DNA of 64,000 bases, taken from contig BOKM01000001.1 in NCBI GenBank assembly GCA_016860985.1, positions 856,040 to 920,039 on the forward strand, given 5' to 3'. Positions within the stretch are counted from its first letter, which is position 1, and every line of letters starts with the position of its first letter. This DNA is from Patescibacteria group bacterium. GTDB taxonomy: Bacteria; Patescibacteriota; Dojkabacteria; GCA-002793355. Positions 31,423-57,046 of the stretch are shown in pieces. The notes below the pieces were generated by a model, which saw only the letters and a program-made list of their open reading frames with translations, was not told where the DNA came from and ran no database searches. The position numbers and the translations under genes are program-made.

Positions 31423-31831
31423 TGTCAGATGTTACGGATACGGTAGTAGCGGCCGAAGGAACTCCTGTCGTTTTTGCAAAAAGCACTTCAGGCGACCCTG
31501 ACGTAACGGAAATTGAGATTTTACTGCTATCAAAACTGAGAATATCATCGTAAATTTGATTCCGAGTCGCATATGAGTTACCGGCAAACACAATAACACT
31601 GCTGGATTGAATCGATACTCCCCAACTTGAATCGTGTCTTCCTTGTTGAGCATAAAGCTGTGCCTTTCTGAGTGCATGACCAATTTGAGATTGTGCGCTT
31701 TCTGTCTGGATTCGATATGTAATTCCTGAATCGAGTGCAAAAGGAACGGTTGCGAGAATACCCATAAGCGATACTGTAAGCAGCACTTCAATGATGGTCA
31801 TAGCTTGTAGTTGGGGCAACTTTTGGTTCAT
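31367..31831 (-). CDS. prepilin-like protein
   Basis: MNQKLPQLQA|MTIIEVLLTVSLMGILA: class III signal-like, E at +5. Confidence 0.5.
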   Translation of the reverse strand: MNQKLPQLQAMTIIEVLLTVSLMGILATVPFALDSGITYRIQTESAQSQIGHALRKAQLYAQQGRHDSSWGVSIQSSSVIVFAGNSYATRNQIYDDILSFDSSKISISVTSGSPEVLFAKTTGVPSAATTVSVTSDSADAKSIVFSTDGRLTYN

Positions 31832-32886
31832 TAGTAAATATTAAGATTTCCGACAATGTTATACAGCGGGAATATGACTGCAAGCGCAACAAGTAGTACA
31901 AAGAACCAAACGACGACAATAAGGAGTGGCTCAATAACAGCAGAAAGTGTTTGAGTGCTTAAATCCATCTTTTTTTGGTAGATGTCACCTATCTTGTTAA
32001 AGATTTCTGGAAGGTGTCCTGATTTTTCGGCTGATGAAACGAGGTTTTGTACAGAGCGAGGAAAAAGGCGGTCAGTTTTTTTGTACTCTGAAAATAGTGC
32101 ACTAAAGGTGACTCCATTTTCTACTCCATGTGCTAAAAATTCATAAAATTTCTGGTATCTCCGAGTCGTTGTGTAATCTCTCAAAAAGTTTAAACCATCG
32201 GTGATAACGATACCAGAGTTACTTAAGAGTCCAAGCAAAAAGCCGAATCGTGCAATTTCAATCTGTCGAAAAATATCCTTAATTCCTGGAAGTCTGAATA
32301 GTAGTTCTTGTCCCCAATGTTTTGTTTGTTTATTAATAAACAGAAGGTAAATAATGAGAGCAACAAAAAGGAAAAATAGAGGCGCAACAATGTATCCGTA
32401 CTTTTGTAAAAAAGTACCTGCGGCAAGAAGAAAAAGCGTAATTGCAGGTAATTCTCCCCCAAGCTTCGAGAAAGTTTCTGAAATTTTAGGGAGAATAACA
32501 AAAGCATTTACGCCTCCGAGTACAATAACCATAGCCAAAATAAAAGCCGGATATATTGAGGCAGCAACAACCTTAGACTTAAATTCTTTGTCTCGAGCGT
32601 ATTGCGCAGCAACCATAGATAACTGCTCTTTTAGTTTTCCAGATTGTTCTCCGGTTCGGATAAATGAGAGGAATTGCTCTGGAATAATATTCGTGCCTCG
32701 AAACGCTTGCCACAGTTGGTCACCACTATCTACCCTGTCTCGGATTTTTGCAATCTTTTGCTTGAGATCCTTTTGAGAAACTTCCTCTTCTAGAGATAAT
32801 AGTGCAGTACTCACATCCATACCCGCTTCAAGAAGAATCGAAAGTTGCTCGAGTACAAAGCTTTTTTCGTCGTTATTTCTGGCCAT
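31831..32886 (-). CDS. pilC: type IV pilus assembly platform protein PilC/GspF family
   Basis: 351 aa polytopic membrane protein with T2SS-F-like cytoplasmic domains; operon position between PilB and pilins. Confidence 0.7.
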   Translation of the reverse strand: MARNNDEKSFVLEQLSILLEAGMDVSTALLSLEEEVSQKDLKQKIAKIRDRVDSGDQLWQAFRGTNIIPEQFLSFIRTGEQSGKLKEQLSMVAAQYARDKEFKSKVVAASIYPAFILAMVIVLGGVNAFVILPKISETFSKLGGELPAITLFLLAAGTFLQKYGYIVAPLFFLFVALIIYLLFINKQTKHWGQELLFRLPGIKDIFRQIEIARFGFLLGLLSNSGIVITDGLNFLRDYTTTRRYQKFYEFLAHGVENGVTFSALFSEYKKTDRLFPRSVQNLVSSAEKSGHLPEIFNKIGDIYQKKMDLSTQTLSAVIEPLLIVVVWFFVLLVALAVIFPLYNIVGNLNIY

Positions 32887-32887
32887 G

Positions 32888-34555
32888 TTAGTCTGAAATT
32901 TGGGCTACTCGGAGCACCTCATCTAATGTAGTCACACCATGTTTTACCTTTTCAATTCCGTCTTTGAATAACGAAATCATGCCTTGCTTTAAGGCGAGCT
33001 TTCTAATTTCGTCTGCAGAAGGTTTCGAAAGAAGGAGTTCTCGCATTTCTTTTGTTACCGATATCATTTCAAATATAGCAGACCTCCCTTTATATCCTCT
33101 GAAGTTACAAACCTTGCAACCCTTTGCTTGATACAAGGTCGTTGCTTTTCCGAGGTACTTTGCTGTTGTTCCGTATTGTTTTTCTAGTTCCTTCGAATTT
33201 GCTTTGTAACTTACTTTACATGCGTCACATAGTTTTCGGACAAGGCGCTGTGAAACAATAAGCTCGAGTGTTGATGAAAGCAAAAATGCTTCAGTACCCA
33301 TATCTATCATCCTCGGGACTACTGTTGACGCATCGTTCGCGTGGAACGTTGAGAGAAGTAGGTGCCCAGTAAGCGCCGCGTTCACTGCAATCTCAGCAGA
33401 ATCTTTATCTCTAATTTCTCCAACAAGAATAATATCTGGATCTTGTCGTACCAACGATCGCAACCCGGAGGCAAAGGTAATTCCGGTTTCTTTGTTTACT
33501 TGAACTTGTGTCGCACCTTTGATGCGGTATTCGACTGGATCTTCGATGGTCATAATGTTTAGCCCTGGAGTAATAACTTTGCTTAATACGGCGTAAAGTG
33601 TGGTCGATTTTCCTGAACCCGTCGGTCCAGATACCACAATCATTCCGAATGGTTTTTTGGCAGCATCTGCAAGTAATTTTTGATGAGTCTCTGATAATCC
33701 GATTTGATCAAGACCTAACCCACCGACCACTTGTGAAAGAATACGTAAGGCAAGCTTTTCTCCGTAAAGAGATGGAACAAACGATACACGAAGGTCGTAC
33801 TGTTTTTTGTGCCAATCGTGGCTAAACGAACCGTCTTGAATCGATTGATGCTCATCGAGCCGGAGTCGTGCGAGTACTTTGATTCGGTTGACCACTTTCT
33901 CGTACGTATCGCTAGTGATATCTGCCATTTCGTGGAGCATACCATCGATTCTGAATCGAATAACAACTGCAAAGGCAGCAGGTTCAAGGTGGATATCGGT
34001 TGCTCTACTCTCGTATGCGCTAGATAAAATTTCATCAATAAGTTGTTTGATTTGTACTTCGGGTTGCGAAAGTATAACTTGGAGTTTTTGTTGCAGCGGA
34101 ACCTCGTAACTGGTGAAAAGTGCTTCAATATCTTCAGTTAAGGAGTAGGCAACTCTGATTTTCTCTACATTTTCGAATGCCTTTGTTGTCGCGGCTAAAT
34201 CTTCTAATTCGCGGATAAGTTTAGGATTTTTGGGGTCATCTGTCGCAAACGTAAGCAAACCATTGGTATTGGAGAATATTACCAAATTGTATTCTCGCGC
34301 AATTTTTTCGGGGATTGCACGTACTTGAGATTCATCTGGAATAAGGGAGTTTAAGTCGGCATATGGAACACGGAAGTACTCGGCAATTGCTTGCCCCAGT
34401 AGATCTTTCGTTAAAAGCTCTTCGCTAATGAGCACTGTCGTTAAGGGAAGTCCGCGTGTCTTTGCTCTTTGGAGCATTACCGTTGCGACCTCTTCTTCGA
34501 GGTAACTTTGCTGAACAAGAATTTTGCTTAGCTGTTCGTCATTGAGTTTGTTCAT
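32888..34555 (-). CDS. pilB: type IV pilus assembly ATPase PilB/GspE family
   Basis: Walker A VSGPTGSGKSTTLYA, Asp box, His box, C-terminal tetracysteine motif (CDACK…CKVCNFRGYKGR), N-terminal GspE_N-like domain. Confidence 0.85.
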   Translation of the reverse strand: MNKLNDEQLSKILVQQSYLEEEVATVMLQRAKTRGLPLTTVLISEELLTKDLLGQAIAEYFRVPYADLNSLIPDESQVRAIPEKIAREYNLVIFSNTNGLLTFATDDPKNPKLIRELEDLAATTKAFENVEKIRVAYSLTEDIEALFTSYEVPLQQKLQVILSQPEVQIKQLIDEILSSAYESRATDIHLEPAAFAVVIRFRIDGMLHEMADITSDTYEKVVNRIKVLARLRLDEHQSIQDGSFSHDWHKKQYDLRVSFVPSLYGEKLALRILSQVVGGLGLDQIGLSETHQKLLADAAKKPFGMIVVSGPTGSGKSTTLYAVLSKVITPGLNIMTIEDPVEYRIKGATQVQVNKETGITFASGLRSLVRQDPDIILVGEIRDKDSAEIAVNAALTGHLLLSTFHANDASTVVPRMIDMGTEAFLLSSTLELIVSQRLVRKLCDACKVSYKANSKELEKQYGTTAKYLGKATTLYQAKGCKVCNFRGYKGRSAIFEMISVTKEMRELLLSKPSADEIRKLALKQGMISLFKDGIEKVKHGVTTLDEVLRVAQISD

Positions 34556-36072: not shown

Positions 36073-38001
36073 TTAAATATCAAGCATCGCGTATTTCGCG
36101 TATTGCTGAATAAACTTTTTACGTGGTCCAACCTCTGTACCCATGAGCATGTCAAAAAGTGAATCTGCTGCAGCAGCGTCTGCTACTGAGACCTTTTTGA
36201 GTACTCGTTTGTCTACATCCATAGTTGTTTCTTTTAGCTGGTCAGGGTTCATTTCTCCAAGACCTTTGAATCGTTGCACACTCTTGATTTTATGACCAGC
36301 TTTGATTTCTTTTTCTACAAATTTGTCTTTTTCGATTTCGCTTACAAACCAGTATTTTTCTTTTCCAACTTCGACTTTGAACAATGGTGGTTGCGCAATG
36401 AATACTCGACCATCATCAATAAGTCTTCTCATAAATCGATAGAAGAAGGTAAGTACCAAAATCACAATGTGTGAACCGTCCACATCTGCATCTGTCATGA
36501 TGATAATCTTTCCGTAGCGAAGCCGTGTCATATCCATTTGGTCTGCGATACCACAACCAATTGCGGTAACAAGATCTTTTAGTCGGTAGTTCGCCAGTAC
36601 GCGATCTACTCTGTGTTTTTCCGCGTTGATTGGCTTACCCGTGAGTGGGAGAATCGCTTGAAATTCTCGGTCTCTACCCTGCTTTGCCGATCCACCTGCG
36701 CTATCACCCTCTACGATGAATAGCTCGGACTTATCTTTATCTTTAGTTGAACAGTCGGCAAGTTTACCTGGTAAAGCAGTAAACGTCAGTGCACTCTTTC
36801 TAAGGATAGCATTACGTGCTGCTTTAGCCGCATTTCTTGCCTTTAAGGAAAGGATAGCTCGAGAAATAATCTGCTTTGCATCTTGTGGGTTTTCGGTAAA
36901 GAATTCAGCTAAAGCGTCAGACACAACTGCCTGCACAGCACTCTTTGCTTCTGGGTTGTTAAGCTTGATTTTTGTTTGGCCTTCGAATTGCGGGTTACCA
37001 ATTTTAATCGAAATAATTGCAGTTAACCCTTCGCGAACGTCTTCTCCTTCAAGTTTTGTTTTTTCGTCTAGCAATTTATTTGCCATTCCGTATTTGTTGA
37101 TTGCTGACGTAAGTGCTGCTTTAAAACCTGCTAAGTGAGTGCCTCCTTCTGGGTTCTCGATATTGTTTGCAAAAGTTCTAATCTTGTCGGTCATAGAATC
37201 GGTATAAAGGAATCCGACTTCGACCATAATATCGTCCTTTTCTTTGCTAACATAAAAAGGCGTCTTCATTATTGCGGTTCCTGTTTGTTGGTTGTGAACG
37301 AACGATAAGATTCCCTTTTCGAAATAGTAACGCTTTATAGTCGGTGTCGCGGTAGTTTCGTTTACAAAGGTAAAATTGATGCCGGACGTTAAGAATCCTT
37401 GATAATGCAGTCTCGTTTCAATTGTTTTTGGGTTATATTGCAAGTCACCGAATATCTCTGGATCAGGTGTAAAAAATTGCGTTGTACCTGTTCGTTCTTT
37501 GTACTCGGAGAGTGGTTTTTCGGTCAGTTCTGTTTGAGGAATACCTTGTTTATATTCTTGAGTGTATCTTTTTCCGTTACGGCAAACCGAGGTCACCATT
37601 TTTATTGAAAGTGCGTTGGTACATGACATACCTACGCCGTGAAGACCTCCGGAGACTTTATAGGCACCTTTGTCGAATTTTCCACCTGCGTGTAGAACGG
37701 TCATAACGGTTTCAAGCGCGCTTCGTCCGGTTTCTGGATGAATATCGACAGGAATACCTCGACCGTTATCTGTTACAGATATTGAGTTATCTTTGTGCAA
37801 AACAACGGTAATGTGAGTTGCAAAGCCTGCGAGAGCTTCATCTACCGCGTTATCGAGCACTTCATAAAAAATATGATTCAAGCCATTGATGTCAGTTGAA
37901 CCTACATACATGGCTGGTCTTTGGCGGACTGCCTCAAGGCCTTTAAGAACAGTAATATTTGCTGCGCTATAGTTGTTTTGTGTTGTTGGTGTCTTGGTCA
38001 T
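36073..38001 (-). CDS. gyrB: DNA gyrase subunit B (type IIA topoisomerase B subunit; ParE not excluded)
   Basis: 642 aa; GHKL ATPase motifs (LHAGGKFD, GLHGVG), Toprim EGDSAGG, PLKGKILNVEK-like region. Confidence 0.8.
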   Translation of the reverse strand: MTKTPTTQNNYSAANITVLKGLEAVRQRPAMYVGSTDINGLNHIFYEVLDNAVDEALAGFATHITVVLHKDNSISVTDNGRGIPVDIHPETGRSALETVMTVLHAGGKFDKGAYKVSGGLHGVGMSCTNALSIKMVTSVCRNGKRYTQEYKQGIPQTELTEKPLSEYKERTGTTQFFTPDPEIFGDLQYNPKTIETRLHYQGFLTSGINFTFVNETTATPTIKRYYFEKGILSFVHNQQTGTAIMKTPFYVSKEKDDIMVEVGFLYTDSMTDKIRTFANNIENPEGGTHLAGFKAALTSAINKYGMANKLLDEKTKLEGEDVREGLTAIISIKIGNPQFEGQTKIKLNNPEAKSAVQAVVSDALAEFFTENPQDAKQIISRAILSLKARNAAKAARNAILRKSALTFTALPGKLADCSTKDKDKSELFIVEGDSAGGSAKQGRDREFQAILPLTGKPINAEKHRVDRVLANYRLKDLVTAIGCGIADQMDMTRLRYGKIIIMTDADVDGSHIVILVLTFFYRFMRRLIDDGRVFIAQPPLFKVEVGKEKYWFVSEIEKDKFVEKEIKAGHKIKSVQRFKGLGEMNPDQLKETTMDVDKRVLKKVSVADAAAADSLFDMLMGTEVGPRKKFIQQYAKYAMLDI

Positions 38002-38067
38002 GTCAGTGAATTATAACATAAGAAAATGAGTGGTGGACCTCTATAAATGTGTGAAATTTCTTGTGGT

Positions 38068-38541
38068 TTAATCGTTAAGTACGAGTGACACAGTTGCCCG
38101 CTCACTTGCGTTAAAGGTGCCAGTAGAAATATAAGGAACAATTACCTGAGCGCACATTTCTGCTGTACTCGAGGTTATAACGCGAAGCGTAACCTGCTCT
38201 GGGTAGCTTTCGGCTACCAATACTTCGGTTTTAACTTCGGTGCAAGGATTAGGGAGCTGTGCACTGATTTCGTACTCCCATGTATTGTTTTCTACATATG
38301 TGGCTTCAAGAGTGAATCCATTTTGTGTCTTAACGATTGTTCCATTAAGGGGTGTTGGTGTCGGAGTGCCTTTGGGTGGCAGAAGCGTACTTGAAGTGAT
38401 AGATGGCCAAGCAAGATAAATCCCAACAGAAAGAAGGGCAAAGGTGACGACTCCAATAACTGCTACCGTACGGTTACTCATAGAAAGTATATCCAGCTTA
38501 ATTACTGTTCCATTATGCGTATTCTTCACTCTACTTGTCAA
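38068..38541 (-). CDS. secreted/membrane-anchored hypothetical protein
   Basis: 157 aa; internal TM/signal MSNRTVAVIGVVTFALLSVGIYLAW. Confidence 0.35.
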   Translation of the reverse strand: MTSRVKNTHNGTVIKLDILSMSNRTVAVIGVVTFALLSVGIYLAWPSITSSTLLPPKGTPTPTPLNGTIVKTQNGFTLEATYVENNTWEYEISAQLPNPCTEVKTEVLVAESYPEQVTLRVITSSTAEMCAQVIVPYISTGTFNASERATVSLVLND

Positions 38542-38561
38542 ATGCTATAAAATGCGGACGT

Positions 38562-39959
38562 ATGAACAAACGAACAAAAATAGTATGTACCATTGGCCCA
38601 GCGTCATGGGACCCCTCTGTAATGAGAGCAATGATTGAAAACGGGATGGATTGTGCCCGAGTAAACGGTGCTTTTGCTGATCCAGCCGAGATGGACAAGG
38701 TTAAGGAATTAGTAAGAGCAGTATCTCAAGAGGTATCTCTGATGCTTGACGTCAAAGGCCCCGAAGTCCGACTCAACAAGTTCCCAGAACCGATTAAGCT
38801 CGCTCCAGGTATGCACCTTTCAATTGGGAGTACGCCAACTGATCCACTCTACCCTGCCAATTACCCGCATCTGTACAAATTCGTTCAAGCAGGACAGAAA
38901 ATTCTTGTAGGAGATGGAGATGTTGAGTTGGTTGTAAAAGAGGTCACAAACGGTTTTTTGCACTGTGAAGTTGTATTTGGAGATATCTTAAAGCCAGGAA
39001 AAGCACTGAACCTACCAGGTTGTACCTACACGACCGATGTGTTAACTGAGAAGGATAAGGAGAATTTACGACATGCTATTGTGACCGGTTGGGACTTTGT
39101 TTCACCTTCGTTTATCCAAGATAAAGAGTCTGCCTTGCAGGTAAGAGCGTTTCTTAAAGGTTCCGATATGAAGATAATTGCAAAGATTGAAAATCAAGTT
39201 GGTATCGACAACATTGATGAGATTCTCGAAGTCGTTGATGGGATTATGGTCGCCAGAGGTGGTTTAGGCGTTGAGCTCGGTCTTGGAAAAGTTCCTTTGG
39301 TGCAGCGATTGTTGATTGAAAAAGCAAATGAGGCCGGAAAGCCTGTGATAACTGCTACGCAAATGCTCGAATCAATGATTACAAACCCAAGCCCTACTCG
39401 AGCAGAAGCAAACGATATTGCAACTGCAATTCTAAGCGGAACCGACGCAATCATGTTGTCGGGAGAAAGCTCTGCCGGAAAGTACCCCGCAGAAGCGGTT
39501 GCCTTTATGAGTAAAACAGCAGGTGAGATTGAACAATCTATCGAACCCAAAATCATAACTAAACGAGCTTTAGATGCATCGATTTCTGCAGATGCAATTA
39601 CTAAGGCAGCTGCCTCTTTGTGTATTGAAATGTCAAAAGACATTGACAAAGTTTTGGTCGTTTCAAAAACTGGTCGTACTGCACGATTACTTGCCCGACA
39701 TAATATCACGCAACCTATCTTTGCTTTCGTAGCCTCGGAGGTATCTGCCCGTACGCTACTGTTGAGTAAAGGCATTATGAAAACATTTGTGCAACCACCT
39801 TCGTTAGAGGCCAGAGATTCGGCAGTTATGCAAATAGTAGAACGTGCAAAACAGGAGGGGCTTGTGGCAGTGAACGAACGCGTTTTGTTGCTGTGCAAAA
39901 CTCCAATCGATGGTGAACACTACTTCCCAAATGTATTCGAAATCATTGAGGTAAAATAA
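38562..39959 (+). CDS. pyk: pyruvate kinase (start placed at MNKRTKIVCTIGP; ORF-track start 38535 overlaps upstream gene)
   Basis: KIVCTIGPAS…MDCARVNGAF…, MVARGGLGVE, C-terminal regulatory domain. Confidence 0.85.
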   Translation: MNKRTKIVCTIGPASWDPSVMRAMIENGMDCARVNGAFADPAEMDKVKELVRAVSQEVSLMLDVKGPEVRLNKFPEPIKLAPGMHLSIGSTPTDPLYPANYPHLYKFVQAGQKILVGDGDVELVVKEVTNGFLHCEVVFGDILKPGKALNLPGCTYTTDVLTEKDKENLRHAIVTGWDFVSPSFIQDKESALQVRAFLKGSDMKIIAKIENQVGIDNIDEILEVVDGIMVARGGLGVELGLGKVPLVQRLLIEKANEAGKPVITATQMLESMITNPSPTRAEANDIATAILSGTDAIMLSGESSAGKYPAEAVAFMSKTAGEIEQSIEPKIITKRALDASISADAITKAAASLCIEMSKDIDKVLVVSKTGRTARLLARHNITQPIFAFVASEVSARTLLLSKGIMKTFVQPPSLEARDSAVMQIVERAKQEGLVAVNERVLLLCKTPIDGEHYFPNVFEIIEVK

Positions 39960-40024
39960 TCGAGAGTGTCAGGCCTGTTCTACACATTTTCGATATATTT
40001 TATGAAAAAGGTGTAAAATACTGC

Positions 40025-40675
40025 ATGGGTGAACCTGTTGCTGCAGAAGTCGAATCACGTATGCCGTATCGGTCATTTGATGTGGCGGTTGCCGTACGAG
40101 AGGGTGCTCAAGAGTATACTTTAACCCCAAACGAATCGAATTTACCACAAGGTGTCGATATCTTTACAGAAGGGCTTATGAACGTTGCGACGTTGCTTCG
40201 TGCAGACACAGGGTACAAAACAACTGGAACTCGCGAAGTTTATGATATTCCTTGGCAAACACGTCAACTCTATTCTCTATTTGTAAGCCCCTCCGAAGAT
40301 GCGTTTAAAAAGGCAACTTCAATTCCAGCTGAAGCGCATGTGGCGCTCAAGCAAATAAGAGTTATAACCTTAGATAAAGAATTTGGAGATAGAACCGACC
40401 ATGTGGGAGACCGTGCCTCTATTGAATGTGACATCGAAATCGAAGGTAAACCGACACACGTAACGATACGATTATCACAAAAAGCAATTCACGAAGAATC
40501 TGAGACGCATGATTTAGCCCAAAACACTGTTCAGGGTTTCTTTGACCGAACCGGCGAGCTGCGCAGGGGTGTGCGTATGGTTTCGGGGCTTGTTGTGTGG
40601 GATATGTCTGTTGAGTTAAAAGATATGTCAATTCCCGCCCCAAAGAGAAGGCTTTTAAGATTTGGAAATACATAA
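40025..40675 (+). CDS. hypothetical protein
   Basis: 216-aa ORF, no motif recognised. Confidence 0.3.
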   Translation: MGEPVAAEVESRMPYRSFDVAVAVREGAQEYTLTPNESNLPQGVDIFTEGLMNVATLLRADTGYKTTGTREVYDIPWQTRQLYSLFVSPSEDAFKKATSIPAEAHVALKQIRVITLDKEFGDRTDHVGDRASIECDIEIEGKPTHVTIRLSQKAIHEESETHDLAQNTVQGFFDRTGELRRGVRMVSGLVVWDMSVELKDMSIPAPKRRLLRFGNT

Positions 40676-41438
40676 CGCTATGGAAAAGGGCTGTTTGTAC
40701 ATGATTGCAACTCCGATTGGAAACTTGGGTGATATATCGCAACGCGCATTAGACATTATTGAGCAATGTGATTATCTTGTGTCAGAAAATCCGTCAACAA
40801 CAAAAAAATTATTAACAAAATACGGAATAAGCAAACCTGTTCGTTGGTATCGCGAGAGTAATCATAAAGGTATGAGTCCTTTGATTATTGAGGACATTTT
40901 GTACAAGCACCTTCATGTTGGTGTGGTATCCGAAGCGGGAACACCGGTTGTTTCGGACCCAGGGGCAAAGCTCCTCTCCGACGCCTATTCAAAAGGAGTA
41001 ACGGTAATACCAATTCCAGGAGCGTCTTCGGTTACGACTGCGATTAGTGCGTTTCCTGTTGCAAGTTCCAAATTTCTATTTTGGGGATTTGCACCACGTA
41101 AAGAAGGAGAATTCAAACGCTCTATAACTGAGCAACTATCCTTTCTTGTAAAAGAAAAGGTAGCAATAGTCTATTTTGAGTCGCCGTTTCGACTAAAGAA
41201 AACACTTGGTTACTTATCTTCATTGGCTGCTGAGTTACTGGATAAAGATCTCGAATTAAAAGTAGGGCTTGGAAAAGAAATGACAAAGTTGTTTGAGCAC
41301 TACACTTTTGATACCCCCGAGGGTATATTAAATGCCGAAAATCGGGAGTTCAAACTAGATAAAGGTGAATCGACTCTTGTGATTGTCGTAAAAAAAAGGC
41401 ATACTGAACGTAATGAGCAGCCCCTGGACGATAATTAA
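40662..41438 (+). CDS. rsmI: 16S rRNA (cytidine1402-2'-O)-methyltransferase, tetrapyrrole-methylase fold
   Basis: LYMIATPIGNLGDISQRALDIIEQCDYLVSE matches RsmI N-terminus. Confidence 0.8.
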   Translation: MEIHNAMEKGCLYMIATPIGNLGDISQRALDIIEQCDYLVSENPSTTKKLLTKYGISKPVRWYRESNHKGMSPLIIEDILYKHLHVGVVSEAGTPVVSDPGAKLLSDAYSKGVTVIPIPGASSVTTAISAFPVASSKFLFWGFAPRKEGEFKRSITEQLSFLVKEKVAIVYFESPFRLKKTLGYLSSLAAELLDKDLELKVGLGKEMTKLFEHYTFDTPEGILNAENREFKLDKGESTLVIVVKKRHTERNEQPLDDN

Positions 41439-42192
41439 ACTTGGAGGATCACTTCTCTCCCCATACGAAACCGCATCAAAATCGTTGCAGATTGGTCAAT
41501 TGCCCTTTGATTTAGCATATACCAACGAATTATTAGACGAGTTAAAACGTGTAGGAAAAAAGTGTGTACTAGTTGTTGGTGGTGGGTTTCTCAATCGATG
41601 GTATCTACAATAATTTAAAGAACTTAAGCTTCAAAAGCCCGAAACCGTTACCGATTTTCACATGGTTGGTATGGCTGCTTCTGATATCAACGCAACGCTT
41701 TTTCGAATGTTCTCTGCCGAAAAATTAGGTTACAAGAACGTTTTTCCATATGTGGTTAAGTACCAAGACTACGAGAATTTGGCCTCTCTCCGGTCTGAGT
41801 TCGAAAAATATCAACTCGTAATTGCTGCAGGTTGGAAACCGGGGCATAGCCACGATGTCGACGCACTGATGTTTGCTTCGCTTTTTGGAGTTGCTTCTGT
41901 GTATAGCTTTAAAAACATTGATGGTATTTATACGGGTGACCCTCGAAAATCGGCAACCGCAGCTAAAAAGAAAACGCTGACGTGGGAAATGTACCGAAAT
42001 ATTATTAAAGAAACCACACATGTTCCTGGGGCAAGTTTTCCCATTGATGCAGTGGCTGCACAACTTGCAGAGCGCATGGGTATAGGGTTTGTGGTAATTG
42101 ACGGACGAGACACTCGCGCAGTTAGGGAATTAATGTCAGAGGGGCTTACCACTCGTGGTTCAACTATCTTGCCAACAGTAGCGCATTCATAG
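41413..42192 (+). pseudogene. pyrH: archaeal-type UMP kinase (amino-acid-kinase fold) interrupted by a single in-frame TAA at 41611-41613
   Basis: ORFs 41413-41613 and 41662-42192 share one frame; IIKLGGSLL…VLVVGGGFLNRWYLQ*FKELKLQK…GWKPGHSHDVDAL…NIDGIYTGDPRK is colinear with archaeal-type UMPK and the stop falls at a position that should be a sense codon. Confidence 0.6.
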
Positions 42193-42982
42193 CGGTATGT
42201 TGTAGAAGTTTTGCTACAGTTACGGGGCCAACTCCACCCGGAACAGGGCTATATGCTGTAAGGTATCCATTCGCAGCTGTTGTATCAAAATCACCAACAA
42301 TTTTTCCTTCACTATTTTTGCTAGTTCCAACATCAATAAGTATTGCACCTTGCTTTAGGTCCTGTGCGTTATAAATATGGGGCTTACCAACACAACTGAT
42401 AACGATATCTGCCCTTTTTAAATGTTCAGGCTTGTTTGGTGTCGATTCATCAATTACCTTATAGTGTGTTAGTCCTTTTTTATTGAGTAGATGCGCAACC
42501 GAACCACCGACGTAAGGTGATGAACCAATTACGGTTATATGCTTGTCTTTCAATTTCTCTTTTTCAAGCAGTTCCCAAACTGCAGCTGCAACCGCGGTTG
42601 GGTAAGGTGAGCTCTGAAGAAGCAGGCCATCAACATCGAGATTCTTCGGAATCAATTTGAGTATTCGTTCGCTAGAAAAGCCACTTGGAAGTGGCAATTG
42701 AATCATAATTCCATCAACACTGTTTTTTATTGAGGAAATGTGTTCGCTAATTACTCTCATTACTTCTTCTTCGTTTGTTATTGGGATTTGATAAATATCA
42801 ACTTGAATTCCGATTGCTATGCCCTTCTTTTGCTTCAACGAAACAAAAAGTGAAGAGGCATCATTATTCCCTACCTGAATAATTGATAATCGAGGCGAGA
42901 GTTTGTTTATAGAAATAAGCTCTTTTGTTTGCTGCAAAATTGTTGTTGCATGTAGAGTTCCGTCTATTCGTCTGGTTAACAT
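42164..42982 (-). CDS. folD: bifunctional methylenetetrahydrofolate dehydrogenase/methenyl-THF cyclohydrolase
   Basis: 272 aa; …GKPHIYNAQDLKQGAILIDVG… and SPVPGGVGPVTVAKLL C-terminal motif. Confidence 0.85.
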   Translation of the reverse strand: MLTRRIDGTLHATTILQQTKELISINKLSPRLSIIQVGNNDASSLFVSLKQKKGIAIGIQVDIYQIPITNEEEVMRVISEHISSIKNSVDGIMIQLPLPSGFSSERILKLIPKNLDVDGLLLQSSPYPTAVAAAVWELLEKEKLKDKHITVIGSSPYVGGSVAHLLNKKGLTHYKVIDESTPNKPEHLKRADIVISCVGKPHIYNAQDLKQGAILIDVGTSKNSEGKIVGDFDTTAANGYLTAYSPVPGGVGPVTVAKLLQHTAMNALLLAR

Positions 42983-49760: not shown

Positions 49761-51620
49761 ATGCCACTGCCCTATACTGGTGTTGATATGCGCTTGCTCT
49801 CTGCTCTTGTTGAGCGTGGTCTTATAAAGTCCGAAGTTTCTGAGCAGATAAAGCTTGAATGCGCCCAACAAAACAAATCTGAAATTCAGCTGATTCTTGA
49901 AAAAAAGCTCGTTTCAGAGCGCGATTTATTCAAAACAAAGGCTGCAGTTTATAACGTTCAGTTCATTGATGACGTCTCTGCAATTCAGCCTCCGGCTGAG
50001 CTCATGGTCGGGATTAATATTGACGCCCTTCGAGAGCAACAGTCTTTTCCATTCGAAATGACGGATACTCGCGTCAAAATTCTTATGTCTGATCCGTTCA
50101 ATATTAACGCGATTCAATTCTGGAAGGTTAAATATTTGCCAAGGCAAATTGAGGTTTACACTGCAACTCCATCTGAGGTCGCCTCATATATCGGAACTCG
50201 ATTTGGAAGCATGATCGGCGGTGATGTTCAGGCTGCAGTTTCAAGTTATCAACAAGAGGCAGGTATCAAAGAAACCGTTATTTCTACAGATGACGTCGGA
50301 GATGTTTCACAGAATCTGCAAGGCGCACCTGTTGCCAAAATCGTAAACTCAGTATTGGTATTTGCAGCACAGGCAGGAGCTTCCGATATTCACATTGAAC
50401 CTCAAGAAAAAAGTGTTCGTATTCGATACCGTGTAGATGGTGTATTAACAGAGAAATTAACCCTTCCGAGGGAACTTCTCTCTCCTGTAATTGCAAGAAT
50501 CAAAATCATGTCCAATATGAAAATAGACGAAACTCGATTACCTCAAGATGACCGTCTGTTCATTGCAGTTGGTGATAGAAAATTTGACTTACGTGTTTCT
50601 ACTCTTCCATCTGTGCAAGGAGAAAAGATCGTCATGCGTTTGTTGGAACGAACCTCAGGTATTCCGCCATTGGAAGAATCTGGGTTAAGAGGGTCTGGAT
50701 ACAAACGATATATGGAGAGTATTAGTCTTACAAACGGAATCGTATTGGTTACAGGTCCAACCGGTAGCGGTAAAACAAGAACTTTGGCGAGTACGGTTTC
50801 TCGACTTAATGATCCAAAAGTAAATATTATCTCAATTGAAGATCCAGTCGAAATTAGAATTCCAGGTGTTACTCAAGTACAGGTTAACCACGATATCGGA
50901 CTTGATTTCGCAACTGTACTTCGAGCAGTCTTACGTCAAGACCCCAATATTGTATACCTAGGTGAAGTTCGTGACGAAGAAACCGCACGATTGGCAATCA
51001 GAGCTGCGCTTACCGGTCACTTGGTACTCTCAACTTTGCACACTAATGGTGCTGTTGCCTCTCTGGTACGTTTGATTGACATGGGGATTGAACCTTTCTT
51101 GGTAGCATCTACTGTTAAATGTGTTGTAGCTCAGCGTTTGGTAAGAACTATCTGTCCACATTGCCGTGTTGCCGAAATGGCGAGCCCAGAAATGATTGCA
51201 GAAATCAATCATATACTCGGGGGCATTCAAAACTTTGACGTAGTTCGTTATGTAGAATCAATTGCAAAGCGTGCAGCTGTTACCCCTGATGATCCGGCTT
51301 TCAAGTTTTCTCCTCCTGTTAAGTCACCAGAAATGTCCCCCGAAGGGAGAAAAACAATATATCTTTACAAAGGGGAAGGTTGTTCAAAGTGTGGAGGAAC
51401 TGGATATAAAGGTCGTATGGCAATATTTGAAGTCGCAACGGTGACCGATAAGGTCGCTTCTGGAATTGCACGAAACGCAGAGTTTGATTCGTTAGAAAAA
51501 CTTGCAGAAGAAGAAGGCATGATTACCATGGTACAAGATGGATACTTAAAAGCAATTGAGGGTATCACTACAATTGAAGAAGTAGCCCGTGTGGCCAAGA
51601 GTGATAGTGAAATAACGTAA
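49761..51620 (+). CDS. pilB: type IV pilus assembly ATPase PilB
   Basis: N-terminal GspE_N domains, Walker A VTGPTGSGKTRTLAS, C-terminal Cys4 (CPHC…CSKCGGTGYKGR). Confidence 0.85.
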   Translation: MPLPYTGVDMRLLSALVERGLIKSEVSEQIKLECAQQNKSEIQLILEKKLVSERDLFKTKAAVYNVQFIDDVSAIQPPAELMVGINIDALREQQSFPFEMTDTRVKILMSDPFNINAIQFWKVKYLPRQIEVYTATPSEVASYIGTRFGSMIGGDVQAAVSSYQQEAGIKETVISTDDVGDVSQNLQGAPVAKIVNSVLVFAAQAGASDIHIEPQEKSVRIRYRVDGVLTEKLTLPRELLSPVIARIKIMSNMKIDETRLPQDDRLFIAVGDRKFDLRVSTLPSVQGEKIVMRLLERTSGIPPLEESGLRGSGYKRYMESISLTNGIVLVTGPTGSGKTRTLASTVSRLNDPKVNIISIEDPVEIRIPGVTQVQVNHDIGLDFATVLRAVLRQDPNIVYLGEVRDEETARLAIRAALTGHLVLSTLHTNGAVASLVRLIDMGIEPFLVASTVKCVVAQRLVRTICPHCRVAEMASPEMIAEINHILGGIQNFDVVRYVESIAKRAAVTPDDPAFKFSPPVKSPEMSPEGRKTIYLYKGEGCSKCGGTGYKGRMAIFEVATVTDKVASGIARNAEFDSLEKLAEEEGMITMVQDGYLKAIEGITTIEEVARVAKSDSEIT

Positions 51621-51631
51621 TTACGAAAGAA

Positions 51632-53245
51632 ATGGACTTAAACACAGGAATTCCAATACAAAACCCAAGCACACAATTGCCGCCAGTACCACAGCAAAGT
51701 CCTACTCTTCCAAGTTTTGTTGATCCTGTGACGTCAACGGCTGCACCACTACCTTCCATGCCCCCAGTATCAGGAACTCCTGCTGATCTTCCACCTCTAG
51801 AAGATGTTGAACATTCTCAAGCGTTTGTAGATACACTGTCTGCGTTAAAAGATTTGTCTGCAAAAACGGCAGAAATACCCTTAGACTCAACGCCGGCTGT
51901 TACGGGTGATAGCCCAATAAATGAGTCTGTGAACTCTGTTGAACAGCCACCACAAGATATTCAAGAGAGTACCCCGGTTGTTCCATCTACACCAGTGGTA
52001 GAGATTAAAACACAAACTGAACCTGACATATCAACATTAACTCCACCTGTTTCTACACCTGTGCTTGAAACAGAGCTCCCTGCTCCACCTACTCAAGAGC
52101 AAATTCCTGTTACTGCTTCACCACAATTACCCGATGCTGTTATGGCACCGTTTGCTCCAGTCGGTAATATTCCAATGTCTGGCGCCTACGAAACAAAGAA
52201 ATTACTTGATATTGTTGTGCAAAAGGATGCTTCCGATTTACACCTCGTGGTAGGTTATCCTCCTATGATTCGTGTAGATGGAGATTTAGTCACGGTTGGA
52301 AGCACAATTCTCGACCCCAAAATGGCAAAGGAACTTGTCTATTCTGTTTTGCCAGATGATAAAAAAGAGCAACTTGAAGTTAACCGCGAGGTAGATCTTG
52401 CTTACCAACACGAAGGTGCTGGGCGATTTCGTATTAATGCGTATTGGCAGCGCGGGTATATTTCAGGCGCATTTCGTTTGATTCCTACAAGAATACGTAC
52501 AATTGACGAGTTAAAACTTCCACCGCTATTTCATAAATTCGCAGATATGGAACAAGGGCTTGTATTAGTGACTGGTCCAACTGGGCATGGTAAATCAACA
52601 ACCCTCGCTTCTGTTATTCACGAAATAAACATGAAGCATCCAAAGCATATTTTGACAATTGAAGATCCGATTGAATACGTATTTCCTCAGCAAAAAGCTC
52701 TCGTTTCTCAGCGAGAATTGGGTGATGATACCCATTCCTGGAAAGGTGCACTTCGTTCTGCCCTTCGTGAAGACCCTGATGTAGTACTTGTCGGAGAAAT
52801 GCGTGACTTAGAAACTATTTCTGCTGCAATAACTGTCGCAGAAACAGGTCACTTGGTATTTGCTACCTTGCACACAAACAATGCAGCGCAAACAATTCAA
52901 CGTATTGTGAACATGTATCCTGATGTACAGCAAGAGGAGATTCGTTCTGAACTTGCAGATGTACTTGAGGCAGTGGTCGCGCAGCGTTTAATTCCAGTAA
53001 AAGGTGGAGGTCGTAGAGCTGCACTCGAAGTCATGCTTATGACACCTGCTATCAGAAACCTTATTCGCGAAAACAAAATATATCAAATCGACAACATTAT
53101 CCGCACAAGTATGGACGTAGGCATGATTACGCTTGAAAAATCACTTCTCACTTTCTTTAGAGAAGGGTTGATTTCGCAAGAAGATGCACTGCGTTACGCG
53201 CTCGATGCAACTGAAATGGCAAGATTACTTGAAGAACTAGTCTAA
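51632..53245 (+). CDS. pilT: type IV pilus retraction ATPase PilT/PilU family with ~180-aa Pro/Thr/Ser-rich N-terminal extension
   Basis: Core LLDIVVQKDASDLHL…VTGPTGHGKSTTLASVIHEIN…GEMRDLETI…AHLVFATLHT is PilT-like; preceded by low-complexity PxP-rich sequence in the same ORF, 12 nt after pilB stop. Confidence 0.8.
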   Translation: MDLNTGIPIQNPSTQLPPVPQQSPTLPSFVDPVTSTAAPLPSMPPVSGTPADLPPLEDVEHSQAFVDTLSALKDLSAKTAEIPLDSTPAVTGDSPINESVNSVEQPPQDIQESTPVVPSTPVVEIKTQTEPDISTLTPPVSTPVLETELPAPPTQEQIPVTASPQLPDAVMAPFAPVGNIPMSGAYETKKLLDIVVQKDASDLHLVVGYPPMIRVDGDLVTVGSTILDPKMAKELVYSVLPDDKKEQLEVNREVDLAYQHEGAGRFRINAYWQRGYISGAFRLIPTRIRTIDELKLPPLFHKFADMEQGLVLVTGPTGHGKSTTLASVIHEINMKHPKHILTIEDPIEYVFPQQKALVSQRELGDDTHSWKGALRSALREDPDVVLVGEMRDLETISAAITVAETGHLVFATLHTNNAAQTIQRIVNMYPDVQQEEIRSELADVLEAVVAQRLIPVKGGGRRAALEVMLMTPAIRNLIRENKIYQIDNIIRTSMDVGMITLEKSLLTFFREGLISQEDALRYALDATEMARLLEELV

Positions 53246-54468
53246 TGGAAGAAAAAAAATTGTATGAATATGTCGCAGTAGGAAAAGATGGGAATCGTAC
53301 AAAAGGTTCGATGACTGCGCTTAATAAAGAAGAGGTAGTTACACAACTTTTCCAGAAAGGACTATCGCCTGTTTCAGTCGATGAGGTATCAAAATTGTTT
53401 GCACTTGATAGATTAAAAGAGGTAAACATTGGTGGGGTTCCGCTCAAAGACAAGATGATCTTCTTGAAGCAGTTCTCTATCATGTTAAACGCTGGTTTGT
53501 CGATTACTCGGGCACTTGAGGTATTAAGTATGCAAACCACCAATCCTCGGTTTAAGGTGGTACTTAAAGAGGTATTGAAGTCCGTATCGGGTGGTGTACA
53601 GCTTTCAGATTCTTTTGCAAAATACCCAGATGTATTCGATTCAATTGCAATAAACCTAATCAAAGCTGGTGAACAAAGTGGAAACCTTGGTCTCATTCTC
53701 CGTAAGCTTTCGCGTGAATATGAACAGAAAAATGCGTTAAAAAGTAAAGTCACGTCAGCACTCGCATACCCTGCAGTTCTTACAGTGGTAATGATTGGTG
53801 TAGTTGTGTTTCTGCTTGCAATTGTAGTGCCGCAATTAGAAGATGCCTTTAAGTCCTTTGGGGCGGAACTTCCATGGATTACCAAAGCTGTTATTGGGTT
53901 AAGTAAGGTAATTACAAATTATTGGTATCTAGTGCTTCTTGTGCTTATTGGTGGTGCGGTTGGCATTAAGTATTTTGTTTCAACCCCAGAAGGTCGTCGA
54001 GTATGGGATAAAATACTCATTACGGTCCCAGTATTTGGTCCATTGTTTGTCAAAATACAGGTTGCAACCTTTAGCCGGGTACTATATTTGCTTATCAGCA
54101 GCGGTGTCCCAATTCTTCAGACCTTAGAACTTACTGAAGCGACTTTAAGTAATATTTGGTTTAAAGACGAAGTGATCTCAATGCGTGATCAGGTAAAACG
54201 AGGTGTTTCTATTGCCGTACCGCTGTTACAAAGTCCTTACTTCCCTTCCATTGTTGGGTATATGGTTAATGTTGGACAAGAAACGGGTCAGCTTGATACT
54301 GTGCTTCGCAAGGTTGCAAAATATTACGATTTGGAGATTAAGACGGCAACGTCGACACTTTCATCACTACTTGAGCCAATTCTTCTCGTGGTGATGGGTG
54401 GAGTTGTAGGTGTAATTGTTGCCGCTATTTACTACCCAATGTTCCAATTGACACAGTCAATAAAATAG
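53245..54468 (+). CDS. pilC: type IV pilus assembly platform protein PilC
   Basis: 407 aa; two T2SS-F repeats, 3-4 TM segments; start overlaps pilT stop. Confidence 0.8.
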   Translation: MEEKKLYEYVAVGKDGNRTKGSMTALNKEEVVTQLFQKGLSPVSVDEVSKLFALDRLKEVNIGGVPLKDKMIFLKQFSIMLNAGLSITRALEVLSMQTTNPRFKVVLKEVLKSVSGGVQLSDSFAKYPDVFDSIAINLIKAGEQSGNLGLILRKLSREYEQKNALKSKVTSALAYPAVLTVVMIGVVVFLLAIVVPQLEDAFKSFGAELPWITKAVIGLSKVITNYWYLVLLVLIGGAVGIKYFVSTPEGRRVWDKILITVPVFGPLFVKIQVATFSRVLYLLISSGVPILQTLELTEATLSNIWFKDEVISMRDQVKRGVSIAVPLLQSPYFPSIVGYMVNVGQETGQLDTVLRKVAKYYDLEIKTATSTLSSLLEPILLVVMGGVVGVIVAAIYYPMFQLTQSIK

Positions 54469-54512
54469 TCTATTCTGAAACGTATTAAGGTATTTAACAT
54501 TGCTCAATTTAT

Positions 54513-55088
54513 ATGAAACTTAAAGCATTTACCCTCGTGGAGCTTCTCGTCGTAATGGCGATTATCAGCTTCCTTTCTGTCGGTGCATTTGCCGGCTTAA
54601 GCTATGGACTCCGACAATCTCGTGATGTTCAAAAGAAAAAGCTTGTAGACCTAGCTCACACTGCACTTCAAGCATATTATGCAGATTATGCAGCATATCC
54701 AAAATGTAACGGTGCACCCTCTACTGTCACAGGGTTAACTGGTGGTTGGTATTACTGCCCAGGTGCTTTTCCAATTAGAGGTCAAGCAGGTTCAGGTTTC
54801 TTGATAACTTCTGGCGGTATTACAGGTTTAATGGACTATCTTGAAGGTGAATGGCCAACTTCAAACTCTAATGCTGATCCAGCTGCTGGTGATAAATATC
54901 TGAGATACTATATTAATACAGGCAGCGGTGGCGCAAGCGGAACCCCACTTAAATTCGCAGTTTGTATAACAGTCGAAAACAAGAACGGAAACTCAAACCT
55001 TACCCGAAAGGGCACAACGGTTAAAGACTGTTACTGTGCAGGTGCCGAGTATGCAGAGGTTTCCTGTGCTGGTATGGATGGTCGTTAG
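54513..55088 (+). CDS. type IV pilin (probable major pilin), prepilin-type N-terminal methylation domain
   Basis: MKLKA|FTLVELLVVMAIISFL, Glu+5, C-terminal Cys pair (CYCAGAEYAEVSC). Confidence 0.75.
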   Translation: MKLKAFTLVELLVVMAIISFLSVGAFAGLSYGLRQSRDVQKKKLVDLAHTALQAYYADYAAYPKCNGAPSTVTGLTGGWYYCPGAFPIRGQAGSGFLITSGGITGLMDYLEGEWPTSNSNADPAAGDKYLRYYINTGSGGASGTPLKFAVCITVENKNGNSNLTRKGTTVKDCYCAGAEYAEVSCAGMDGR

Positions 55089-55111
55089 GTCATTCGTTAG
55101 TTAACTCTGTT

Positions 55112-55873
55112 ATGTCACAAGATCAGATTATAATCCTTGCATTCGCTTTTTCTGGTCTTGTGCTTTCAGAGTATGTGCAGCTCATTTCTGATCGTGGTTC
55201 ATTTCTCGATTCCTTGTGGGGGCGTTCTCAGTGTGATTCATGTAAATCGACTATCCCTTGGTTCGGATTAATACCTCTTTTGGGACGTTTTTTACTTAAG
55301 GGTTCGTGTCCAACTTGCGGTAAGCATGTGAGTTGGAAATATTTTCAGTTTGAAGTGATTTTTGGTTTAGGGTGGATAGCTTCCTTGGCTTTCTTTTATA
55401 TCAATTCCATTACTTCCCCACTTATACTTGCTGTCTATCTTCTTCTCTATTGTACTTCGTGGTTACTCATGTACGAGGATGGAAAGCATTATTCTGTTCC
55501 AGTTTCTTGGCTTATTTCTTGGGGAATTACGTACGTGTTGGCGTGGTTCTTTACCTCGTCTACTCATCAGGTATACCCTCCAGATACACTTCTTATGGCG
55601 GCGACACTAGGATTGGCTTTAGTCAGTGTTGCATTAAGAAAACCAAAGGAAGAAAGAGGTATTTCACAGTTATTTGGTGCTGCTGACTTTATTGTGCTGT
55701 TTCTGTTTGTCTTGTTGTTAGGTTTTCAGTACACCACCGTTATTTTAGTGCTAACAATGATTAATGCTGTGCTTTACTTACTTATGAGAAAACAGCTAAA
55801 GGCAGGGCAAAGACTACCTTTGCTTACTGTAATGCTCCCTTGGGGATATGTGCTCCTTTTTCTATTGTTTTGA
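55112..55873 (+). CDS. pilD: prepilin peptidase (A24 family)
   Basis: N-terminal CDSCKSTIPW…CPTCGKHVSW tetracysteine zinc motif, polytopic membrane body; TGA stop. Confidence 0.75.
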   Translation: MSQDQIIILAFAFSGLVLSEYVQLISDRGSFLDSLWGRSQCDSCKSTIPWFGLIPLLGRFLLKGSCPTCGKHVSWKYFQFEVIFGLGWIASLAFFYINSITSPLILAVYLLLYCTSWLLMYEDGKHYSVPVSWLISWGITYVLAWFFTSSTHQVYPPDTLLMAATLGLALVSVALRKPKEERGISQLFGAADFIVLFLFVLLLGFQYTTVILVLTMINAVLYLLMRKQLKAGQRLPLLTVMLPWGYVLLFLLF

Positions 55874-55875
55874 TT

Positions 55876-56430
55876 CTAACGGATTGACACATTTATAAAT
55901 CGCGAGATGTTCTTTACGGCTGGTTCTTCTCCAAGTTTCGCAGTTGACTCCATTGTGTAGGTGAGATTCACATTCGCAACTTGTGCCTCATCAAAATCTG
56001 GTGTTTCACATGTGAAGGCTAAACTCGTAACTTTTACATCTGCATACGTTAGGACTGTTTCACAAACGGGGGTGGTCGCCTGTGCCATACAGAAACGGTA
56101 TTTGTCATCAGCTTCTTTTTGACCGTAAAAAATGAACGTGTCACTTGCCCCTTTTGGTTGCCACGTCACGCTTTTTATTGGATCATTTGGTGCCGAACAT
56201 TTTATTGATCGTGGGTCAGCATTCTTAATACGTAGCTTAAAGTATTCACCTACAAACTCACTTTCGTTTCTGACGGCTGTTCTTGCATCGATAAGGTATG
56301 AGCCGAGTAATAAGGTATTAAACGACTGCACTATCATCACAAAAATCAAAGAAATTAAAGTCATCGCGATGATCGTCTCAAGAAGAGTAAAGCCAGCGAT
56401 TTTCGTTTCTACATGCTTATTGTGGTCCAC
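55876..56430 (-). CDS. minor pilin (prepilin-type N-terminus)
   Basis: …KIAG|FTLLETIIAMTLISLIFV, Gly-1/Glu+5. Confidence 0.6.
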   Translation of the reverse strand: MDHNKHVETKIAGFTLLETIIAMTLISLIFVMIVQSFNTLLLGSYLIDARTAVRNESEFVGEYFKLRIKNADPRSIKCSAPNDPIKSVTWQPKGASDTFIFYGQKEADDKYRFCMAQATTPVCETVLTYADVKVTSLAFTCETPDFDEAQVANVNLTYTMESTAKLGEEPAVKNISRFINVSIR

Positions 56431-57046
56431 TTGTTCGGTACAATTGAAAGCTTAGCTTAAAGGGTTTAAAGGTCGTACTGTCGCACATACCTTCAATACA
56501 GGCAACAATTATTTCAATATTTGCATCATTTGGCGAGTCCTGCGCTTCTGTGAACTCCTTTTGGTCGTTGTCTTTTCGTACGATTATTCGGCCAAAAAGC
56601 TTTTTGTTAAAATTATCTTCAACCTCGTTGGCGGCGGTTAACGCACAGTCGTTGCCTGAAAGATAGCCGGTAGCTTCTTCAAAATGACAGGTATCGTAAG
56701 TAAGTCGCGTAAGTTTTGGTTTTACGTTTGGGTCGCTTACATCAAGATAACCCATTGGTTGTTGCGTTATTGGCGAATTATTTACGGCAGGAGGAATGGC
56801 GGCATTTTCTCCAAAACTGTTCTGCCAATCGGTGTCTTTTGTGTTGTAAACTACCTGTACAACCTCGGTCGCATAATTGCGCATCTTATCTTGAAGTTCT
56901 AGTGTTTTTGTTCGCTTTAAAGAATCAAACGTCATCTGCAAAAGTGACGAAAAAACAAAAGCTGCAACGGCAAGTGCGACAAGAACTTCGATTAAGGTCA
57001 TTGCTGTGATTGTGCGATTAGGTTGTGGTTGCATTGATTTCACCAT
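56417..57046 (-). CDS. minor pilin (prepilin-type N-terminus)
   Basis: …RTITA|MTLIEVLVALAVAAFVF, Ala-1/Glu+5. Confidence 0.6.
   Translation of the reverse strand: MVKSMQPQPNRTITAMTLIEVLVALAVAAFVFSSLLQMTFDSLKRTKTLELQDKMRNYATEVVQVVYNTKDTDWQNSFGENAAIPPAVNNSPITQQPMGYLDVSDPNVKPKLTRLTYDTCHFEEATGYLSGNDCALTAANEVEDNFNKKLFGRIIVRKDNDQKEFTEAQDSPNDANIEIIVACIEGMCDSTTFKPFKLSFQLYRTSGPQ

Follow-up and report, generated by a model that had tools for sequence, protein, structure and literature searches.

The gene for a divergent homolog of the archaeal-type UMP kinases (pyrH-like gene) in the assembled Dojkabacteria strain is interrupted at codon 67 by one in-frame TAA stop codon. The interruption reflects either a point mutation of ordinary kind and very recent date or a base-calling error, and not a case of programmed recoding. 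Our preferred reading, to which we assign a probability of about 0.55, is that the assembled strain, part of a Candidatus Dojkabacteria population, carries a genuine nonsense allele that arose very recently. All positions given below refer to the window, i.e. the whole stretch of 64,000 nucleotides that was analysed. The preliminary description of this DNA had offered three explanations for the stop, of which two survived the analysis, namely a substitution that arose in sequencing or assembly and a nonsense mutation of very recent date, whereas programmed read-through or recoding turned out to be unsupported.

The interrupted gene and its protein family

Two ORFs of the window, 41413-41613 (66 amino acids, ending with TAA) and 41662-42192 (176 amino acids, ending with TAG), are located in one frame. 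Their starts are offset by 249 nt or 83 codons, and translation through both ORFs yields a protein of 259 residues. The joined product matched the Pfam profile AA_kinase (PF00696) with 60.3 bits over profile positions 2-233 of 234 (gathering cut-off 24.9), and the two halves covered profile positions 2-47 and 97-233 when they were searched separately. Additionally, the joined product could be aligned with the UMP kinase of P. furiosus (2bri) straight through the position of the stop. The consecutive AA_kinase halves and this alignment bear out the initial reading of the two ORFs as colinear parts of a single gene in one frame, as do the 48 nt of open frame between the TAA and the next ATG (41614-41661) and the motifs quoted at that time, which were located at residues 9-13 (KLGGS), 54-58 (VVGGG), 143-148 (PGHSHD) and 170-177 (DGIYTGDP). 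The coordinates of the gene, its parts and its direct neighbours are compiled in Table 1.

Table 1. Coordinates of the interrupted pyrH-like gene and of its adjoining genes in the window.
Feature	Position	Strand	Remarks
Whole archaeal-type UMP kinase (pyrH-like) gene	41413..42192	+	259 codons plus terminal TAG, broken at codon 67; intact 259-aa orthologs include P0001
N-terminal fragment, codons 1-66	41413..41610	+	contains K9, G11-G12-S13, the G56-G58 loop and R62
Premature stop TAA, codon 67	41611..41613	+	base 41611: T in the window, C (CAA, Gln) in 8/8 close relatives
Open frame, codons 68-83, 48 nt	41614..41661	+	contains the near-invariant D81 and H83
C-terminal ORF, 176 aa, start at Met84	41662..42192	+	identical to database protein P0037
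S161A change (TCT>GCT)	41893	+	variable column; sole other window-private nonsynonymous change in pyrH
RsmI-like TP_methylase gene, upstream neighbour	40662..41438	+	intact; its last 26 nt (41413-41438) are shared with the start of pyrH
folD, convergent downstream neighbour	42164..42982	-	intact; 3' ends of folD and pyrH have 29 nt in common (42164-42192)

The gene order rsmI-like, pyrH, folD and Mur ligase is common to all relatives, and the tight packing that is evident from the overlaps of pyrH with the RsmI-like gene and with folD was likewise seen in these relatives.

With respect to the protein family, the archaeal pyrH model TIGR02076 was by far the best among the NCBIfam models, with 103.2 bits compared with 38 bits for pyrH_bact. 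A profile built from 33 homologs matched the structures of archaeal UMP kinases along their entire length, including the P. furiosus enzyme, with an E-value of about 1e-34. The AlphaFold model of the intact, 98%-identical ortholog P0001 has a pLDDT of 94.9 and showed its best match to the P. furiosus UMP kinase 2bmu (TM-score 0.88, rmsd 2.5 A); the top 19 Foldseek hits of this model in the PDB were UMP kinases of P. furiosus, S. solfataricus and A. fulgidus. The residues K9, G11-S13, G56-G58, R62, G144-D148, D170-G171, Y173 and D176-P177 are present in the joined product and invariant or nearly invariant in the family, and these nucleotide- and phosphate-binding motifs have their aligned counterparts in 2bri. 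The assignment to the archaeal-type UMP kinases thus holds by sequence and predicted fold, although the joined product does not reach the TIGR02076 equivalog cut-off of 158.05. Because of this score, the protein is best described as a divergent archaeal-type UMP kinase homolog and not as a certified equivalog, with a putative activity that is suggested by homology.

Genes of this archaeal-type UMP-kinase-like family are widespread in CPR bacteria (loci L009-L052), occurring in MAGs labelled Woyke-, Magasanik-, Doudna- and Levyibacteria, Microgenomates and Saccharibacteria, and were also detected among these loci in the DPANN groups Aenigmatarchaeota, Nanoarchaeota and Woesearchaeota; several MAGs carrying such a gene bear the label 'Gammaproteobacteria'. 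The members of the Dojkabacteria clade are characterized by extra inserts at approximately residues 17-32 and 110-125 and by scores below the TIGR02076 cut-off. A literature search on UMP or uridylate kinase in CPR/Patescibacteria gave nothing specific.

Codon 67 in relatives and selection on the gene

The comparison at the DNA level comprised eight close relatives (L001 and L053-L059) that originate from different samples and share 92-98.7% nucleotide identity with the window. All eight contain an intact gene of 259 codons with CAA (Gln) at codon 67, and TAA was found in the window only. The stop is therefore the result of one C>T transition at position 41611 that is private to this genome and converts CAA into TAA. 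The protein data gave the same picture: the 90%-identity cluster around P0001 contains six full-length variants of 259 amino acids with Gln67 in each of them, and three further full-length variants of this cluster, beyond the eight DNA relatives, also possess Gln67. Intact orthologs of 259 amino acids are P0001 itself and, within P0034-P0039, all proteins except the 176-residue P0037. In more distantly related Dojkabacteria, codon 67 is CAA, CAG or AAA. The nearest named genomes belong to Candidatus Dojkabacteria (WS6, CPR/Patescibacteria) with 66-69% protein identity, and the species is absent from the GTDB representative genomes, where the best match reached 69% amino acid identity.

When the set was extended to 32 homologs, a sense codon was present at the position of the stop in every one of them. 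Gln occurs in 16 of the 32 and K, G, N, E, A, R or S in the remainder, with Val in the P. furiosus enzyme. The preliminary description had placed the TAA at a conserved sense position and had pointed to an alignment with orthologs from sister genomes; this alignment revealed Gln in every close relative and a sense codon throughout, but the column as such is only moderately conserved.

No frameshift was detected in the pyrH-like gene, and wherever a column is conserved to at least 90% in the family, the window has the conserved residue. With the stop excluded, the window differs from its relatives by 7-32 synonymous versus 1-4 nonsynonymous codons. The Nei-Gojobori dN/dS ratios for the whole gene ranged from 0.016 to 0.042 in the five relatives compared; dN was zero for codons 1-66 against all five, and the ratios for codons 68-259, downstream of the stop, were 0.017-0.059. 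Window-private alleles besides that at 41611 are located at 41826, 41874, 41889, 41893 and 41943, and these represent four synonymous changes and one nonsynonymous change (S161A). Given a neutral expectation of about 3.3 nonsynonymous changes per synonymous change, in proportion to the numbers of sites, the binomial probability of finding at most one nonsynonymous change among the five is approximately 0.01 if the changes are treated as independent, with the limit that five of the six private changes in pyrH lie within 118 nt and may constitute a single recombination import instead of independent events.

These data clearly indicate that the gene was under purifying selection and is otherwise intact, as had been stated at the outset. 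Since there is a single lesion, with low dN/dS ratios on both sides of it and with the conserved residues retained, the inactivation, if real, must be very recent; the stop is either very recent or not real. A decaying pseudogene is contradicted by the same observations, namely the single lesion, the dN/dS range of 0.016-0.059 and the retention of all columns conserved to at least 90%. A second pyrH elsewhere together with further decay of this copy had been put forward as a test of the interpretation, and in this regard neither further decay of the gene nor a second AA-kinase gene within the window was found.

Origin of the substitution in a multi-strain population

A single T that is present in one of nine genomes might also be a sequencing, base-calling, consensus or polishing error, in which case the true codon would be CAA and pyrH would be intact. 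We consider this possible, but less likely than a genuine allele. The lack of any other defect and the strong purifying selection are what would be expected of a gene that is truly intact. Moreover, the Logan contigs L060 (corresponding to window positions 36073-38983) and L063 from the same run SRR20608311 are 98.6% and 100% identical to the window, respectively, which means that several strains coexist in the sample; strain mixtures favour consensus problems, and L063 breaks at a polymorphic site. Where near-identical genomes disagree over a lone internal stop, an assembly artefact is often the cause (Cooley and Wright 2024, PMC11017572).

On the other hand, no frameshift and no other split or disrupted gene was found in the 64-kb window, and its Pfam-matched genes are all full-length. 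The intact housekeeping neighbours include gyrB, the genes for pyruvate kinase, the RsmI-like methylase and the Mur ligase, folD, holB, leuS, the enolase gene, serS, hisS and the type IV pilus genes. The window (41% GC) is 97% coding under code 11, with 61 ORFs, and this coding density, together with the lack of any other broken gene, gives no hint of an assembly that is generally ridden with errors. An independent assembler reproduced the adjoining 2,256 nt exactly, since contig L063 is 100% identical to window positions 39189-41444, the window-private substitutions included. This contig ends at 41444, which is 167 nt short of position 41611 and coincides exactly with the polymorphic codon 11 of pyrH. 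An additional argument is provided by P0037, a protein of 176 amino acids with the private A161 allele, for which NCBI as well as Logan are given as sources and whose contig of 1,051,512 bp presumably belongs to the window's own genome. Such a product is what a gene caller would be expected to report if the Logan assembly also had the TAA. This evidence is indirect, but the double record suggests that reads assembled independently also gave the stop, and it weakly favours a real variant. The 66-residue N-terminal fragment was absent from the protein collection searched, and a degenerate DNA pattern spanning the site gave no matches in JGI metagenome contigs, so that the window is not represented among these. 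Exact searches with the 176- and 66-residue ORFs, folD and P0037 gave no match, and those with GyrB, the Mur ligase, a protein of 216 residues and the RsmI-like protein retrieved relatives already in the set and two short contigs of SRR20608311.

On the reading that we favour, the C>T transition at 41611 converted the Gln-67 codon CAA into TAA in one strain. In model bacteria, UMP kinase is an essential enzyme, and the gene is strongly constrained in this species; both points make a fixed null allele in a viable lineage unlikely from the outset and speak for an artefact. The very recent nonsense allele may be unfixed in the population, as more than one strain is present in the source sample.

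Several observations on the wider population were made in the course of this comparison. In the folD gene on the minus strand, 41 window-private substitutions (23 nonsynonymous and 18 synonymous) are concentrated in about 160 nt at positions 42728-42885, with five mutually agreeing close relatives as reference; judged from its sequence, this patch looks like a recombination import from a more diverged lineage. The 283-nt tract at 41894-42176 is identical to L001, and its flanks differ from that locus by 8-20 positions per 100 nt. The divergence from L001 along 2.5 kb is strongly mosaic, a pattern which suggests that homologous recombination is frequent in this Dojkabacteria population. Two separate sets of type IV pilus genes are present in the window, at 31831-34555 on the minus strand and at 49761-57704 on both strands, which comprise T2SSE ATPases, T2SSF platform proteins, a prepilin peptidase and several N_methyl pilins; a response regulator gene adjoins the first set. 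In the contig L057 (Logan SRR27197505), a deletion of two nucleotides in a T-run at about 2244-2284, corresponding to window positions 33658-33659, shifts the frame of the gene encoding a PilB-like type IV pilus ATPase of 555 amino acids and may be either a real disruption or a homopolymer error. An apparent in-frame stop in the pilus ATPase gene of GCA_049325555.1 (356 versus 537 amino acids) was discarded, as it reflects a different start call and no stop.

Possible consequences of the stop codon and comparison with known systems

Provided that the nonsense allele is real, both release factors should terminate efficiently at the UAA-U sequence. Efficient termination would yield a fragment of 66 residues with the N-terminal phosphate-binding loops only, which would make the allele null or a strong hypomorph, and codons 68-83 would be left untranslated. 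If any full-length enzyme were still formed, it would result from ordinary near-cognate misreading of UAA and would not require a programmed mechanism. The presence of the T in the reads, the efficiency of termination and the physiological consequence are points that we infer.

A functional gene that is rescued by read-through, either by programmed recoding at the UAA or by misreading through near-cognate tRNA-Gln, would account for the otherwise perfectly intact sequence, and the ancestral residue is Gln. Near-cognate tRNA-Gln is reportedly one of the main misreaders of UAA in suppressor-free E. coli, so that the product of read-through would often be the wild-type protein. We regard such a rescue as improbable, however, on account of the following observations. 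A programmed signal would be conserved, but the stop was found in none of the eight close relatives and in none of the 32 homologs, and this absence throughout the relatives rules out a conserved signal of the programmed kind. Of the 61 ORFs of the window, 30 end with TAA, which is the commonest true stop; the tetranucleotide TAAT, which occurs at the site in the context CAA-TAA-T, ends eight of 49 real genes. UAAU is said to be the strongest termination context in E. coli. The predicted fold of 41605-41704 had an energy of -13.2 kcal/mol compared with a mean of -14.3 kcal/mol for shuffled sequences (z = +0.35). Suppressor tRNA genes were absent from the window, the sole tRNA gene of which specifies tRNA-Tyr (GUA), and pyrrolysine and selenocysteine use UAG and UGA, not UAA. 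Programmed read-through or recoding, as considered in the preliminary description, is therefore unsupported in view of the sense codon in relatives, the status of TAA as the commonest stop, the use of TAA-T as a normal terminator and the lack of RNA structure.

A further alternative assumes that the 66-residue N-terminal fragment and a 176-residue C-terminal fragment, reinitiated at Met84, assemble in trans as a functional enzyme. The in-frame ATG is located 48 nt downstream of the stop, and a missing Shine-Dalgarno (SD) sequence would be no obstacle, as the genes of the window lack an SD signal. Nevertheless, this arrangement is hardly conceivable, since residues 67-83 with the near-invariant D81 and H83 would be lost. 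According to the P0001 model, residue 67 lies within helix 58-70 directly behind the Gly-rich loop, and helix 76-105 begins inside codons 68-83; the end of the former helix and the start of the latter, a core helix, would accordingly be missing. Moreover, no relative has a split arrangement, and the break is private to one strain. The SD duplex energy, calculated with the canonical anti-SD, had a median of -0.1 kcal/mol at 49 gene starts of the window versus -1.9 kcal/mol at internal ATGs. Since real starts carry no SD signal, an SD test of reinitiation at the ATGs at 41662 and 41671 is uninformative. The lack of SD complementarity at the 49 starts suggests largely SD-independent initiation in this lineage, with the limit that each start was that of the longest ORF, so that the signal may be blurred.

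The gene might, on the other hand, be an established pseudogene in a reduced genome, which the cell can do without because it has another UMP kinase or some bypass; alternatively, its stop might be reassigned to sense. CPR genomes are reduced, and their bearers scavenge nucleotides. PNPase yields NDPs directly, and a PNPase route to NDPs could bypass the NMP kinases, although this is speculation for the organism considered here. A cultivated CPR bacterium has been proposed to live on host RNA that is processed by PNPase and NMP kinases (2026 preprint, 10.64898/2026.06.21.733656). We consider these possibilities very improbable for the following reasons. The gene exhibits no decay, having a single lesion, dN/dS ratios of 0.02-0.06 on both sides and all conserved residues, and the window harbours no second AA-kinase gene: an hmmsearch with the family profile against all six-frame segments of the window retrieved only the two pyrH halves. 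A tsf-frr locus and the genes cmk, ndk and pnp were likewise not found within the window. With regard to a change of the code, TAA ends about half of the genes of the window, and no in-frame TAA was detected in any other of them; as no other gene is interrupted, reassignment of this stop is excluded for the window.

It appears unlikely that the TAA is real and has also reached fixation in a viable Dojkabacteria strain, with UMP kinase being dispensable or with background misreading of UAA by tRNA-Gln being sufficient. If it were so, UMP kinase may be dispensable for a CPR episymbiont, for instance because UDP could be supplied by phosphorolysis of scavenged host RNA through PNPase; alternatively, the wild-type residue restored by tRNA-Gln misreading may suffice for a slow-growing, ultra-small cell. 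A fixed null allele would then provide a small but useful data point on dispensable steps of nucleotide salvage in CPR episymbionts.

A lone single-base nonsense change or miscall in one assembled strain is of an ordinary kind, and its importance beyond annotation is small. The appropriate label for the gene is pyrH with an internal stop (possible sequencing error or strain-specific nonsense allele). Its annotation as a protein of 176 amino acids is unwarranted, and metabolic reconstructions of this CPR genome should not take the locus as a sign of a 'missing UMP kinase'.

In comparison with known systems, the deduced protein resembles the archaeal UMP kinases of P. furiosus (2bmu/2bri) and S. 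solfataricus (2j4j) in its full-length colinear match, in the amino-acid-kinase fold and in the common motifs GGS, GGGxxxR, PGH(S/T)xD and DG(I/V)YTxDP. It differs from them in being about 30 residues longer, due to clade-specific insertions, in its bacterial (CPR) host and in the interruption by a stop. Systems of read-through or stop reassignment, such as the decoding of UAG/UAA as Gln in some phages and ciliates, share with this gene an in-frame stop where homologs have Gln; in the present case, however, the stop is unconserved, TAA is the main true terminator, stimulatory context or structure is lacking and no suppressor tRNA was seen in the window. The closest counterparts are ordinary CAA>TAA nonsense changes and 'internal stop' pseudogene calls of the class described in PMC11017572, with which the gene shares a single private transition at a Gln codon in a sequence otherwise under purifying selection. 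The sole difference from these ordinary calls is that the affected gene is normally essential.
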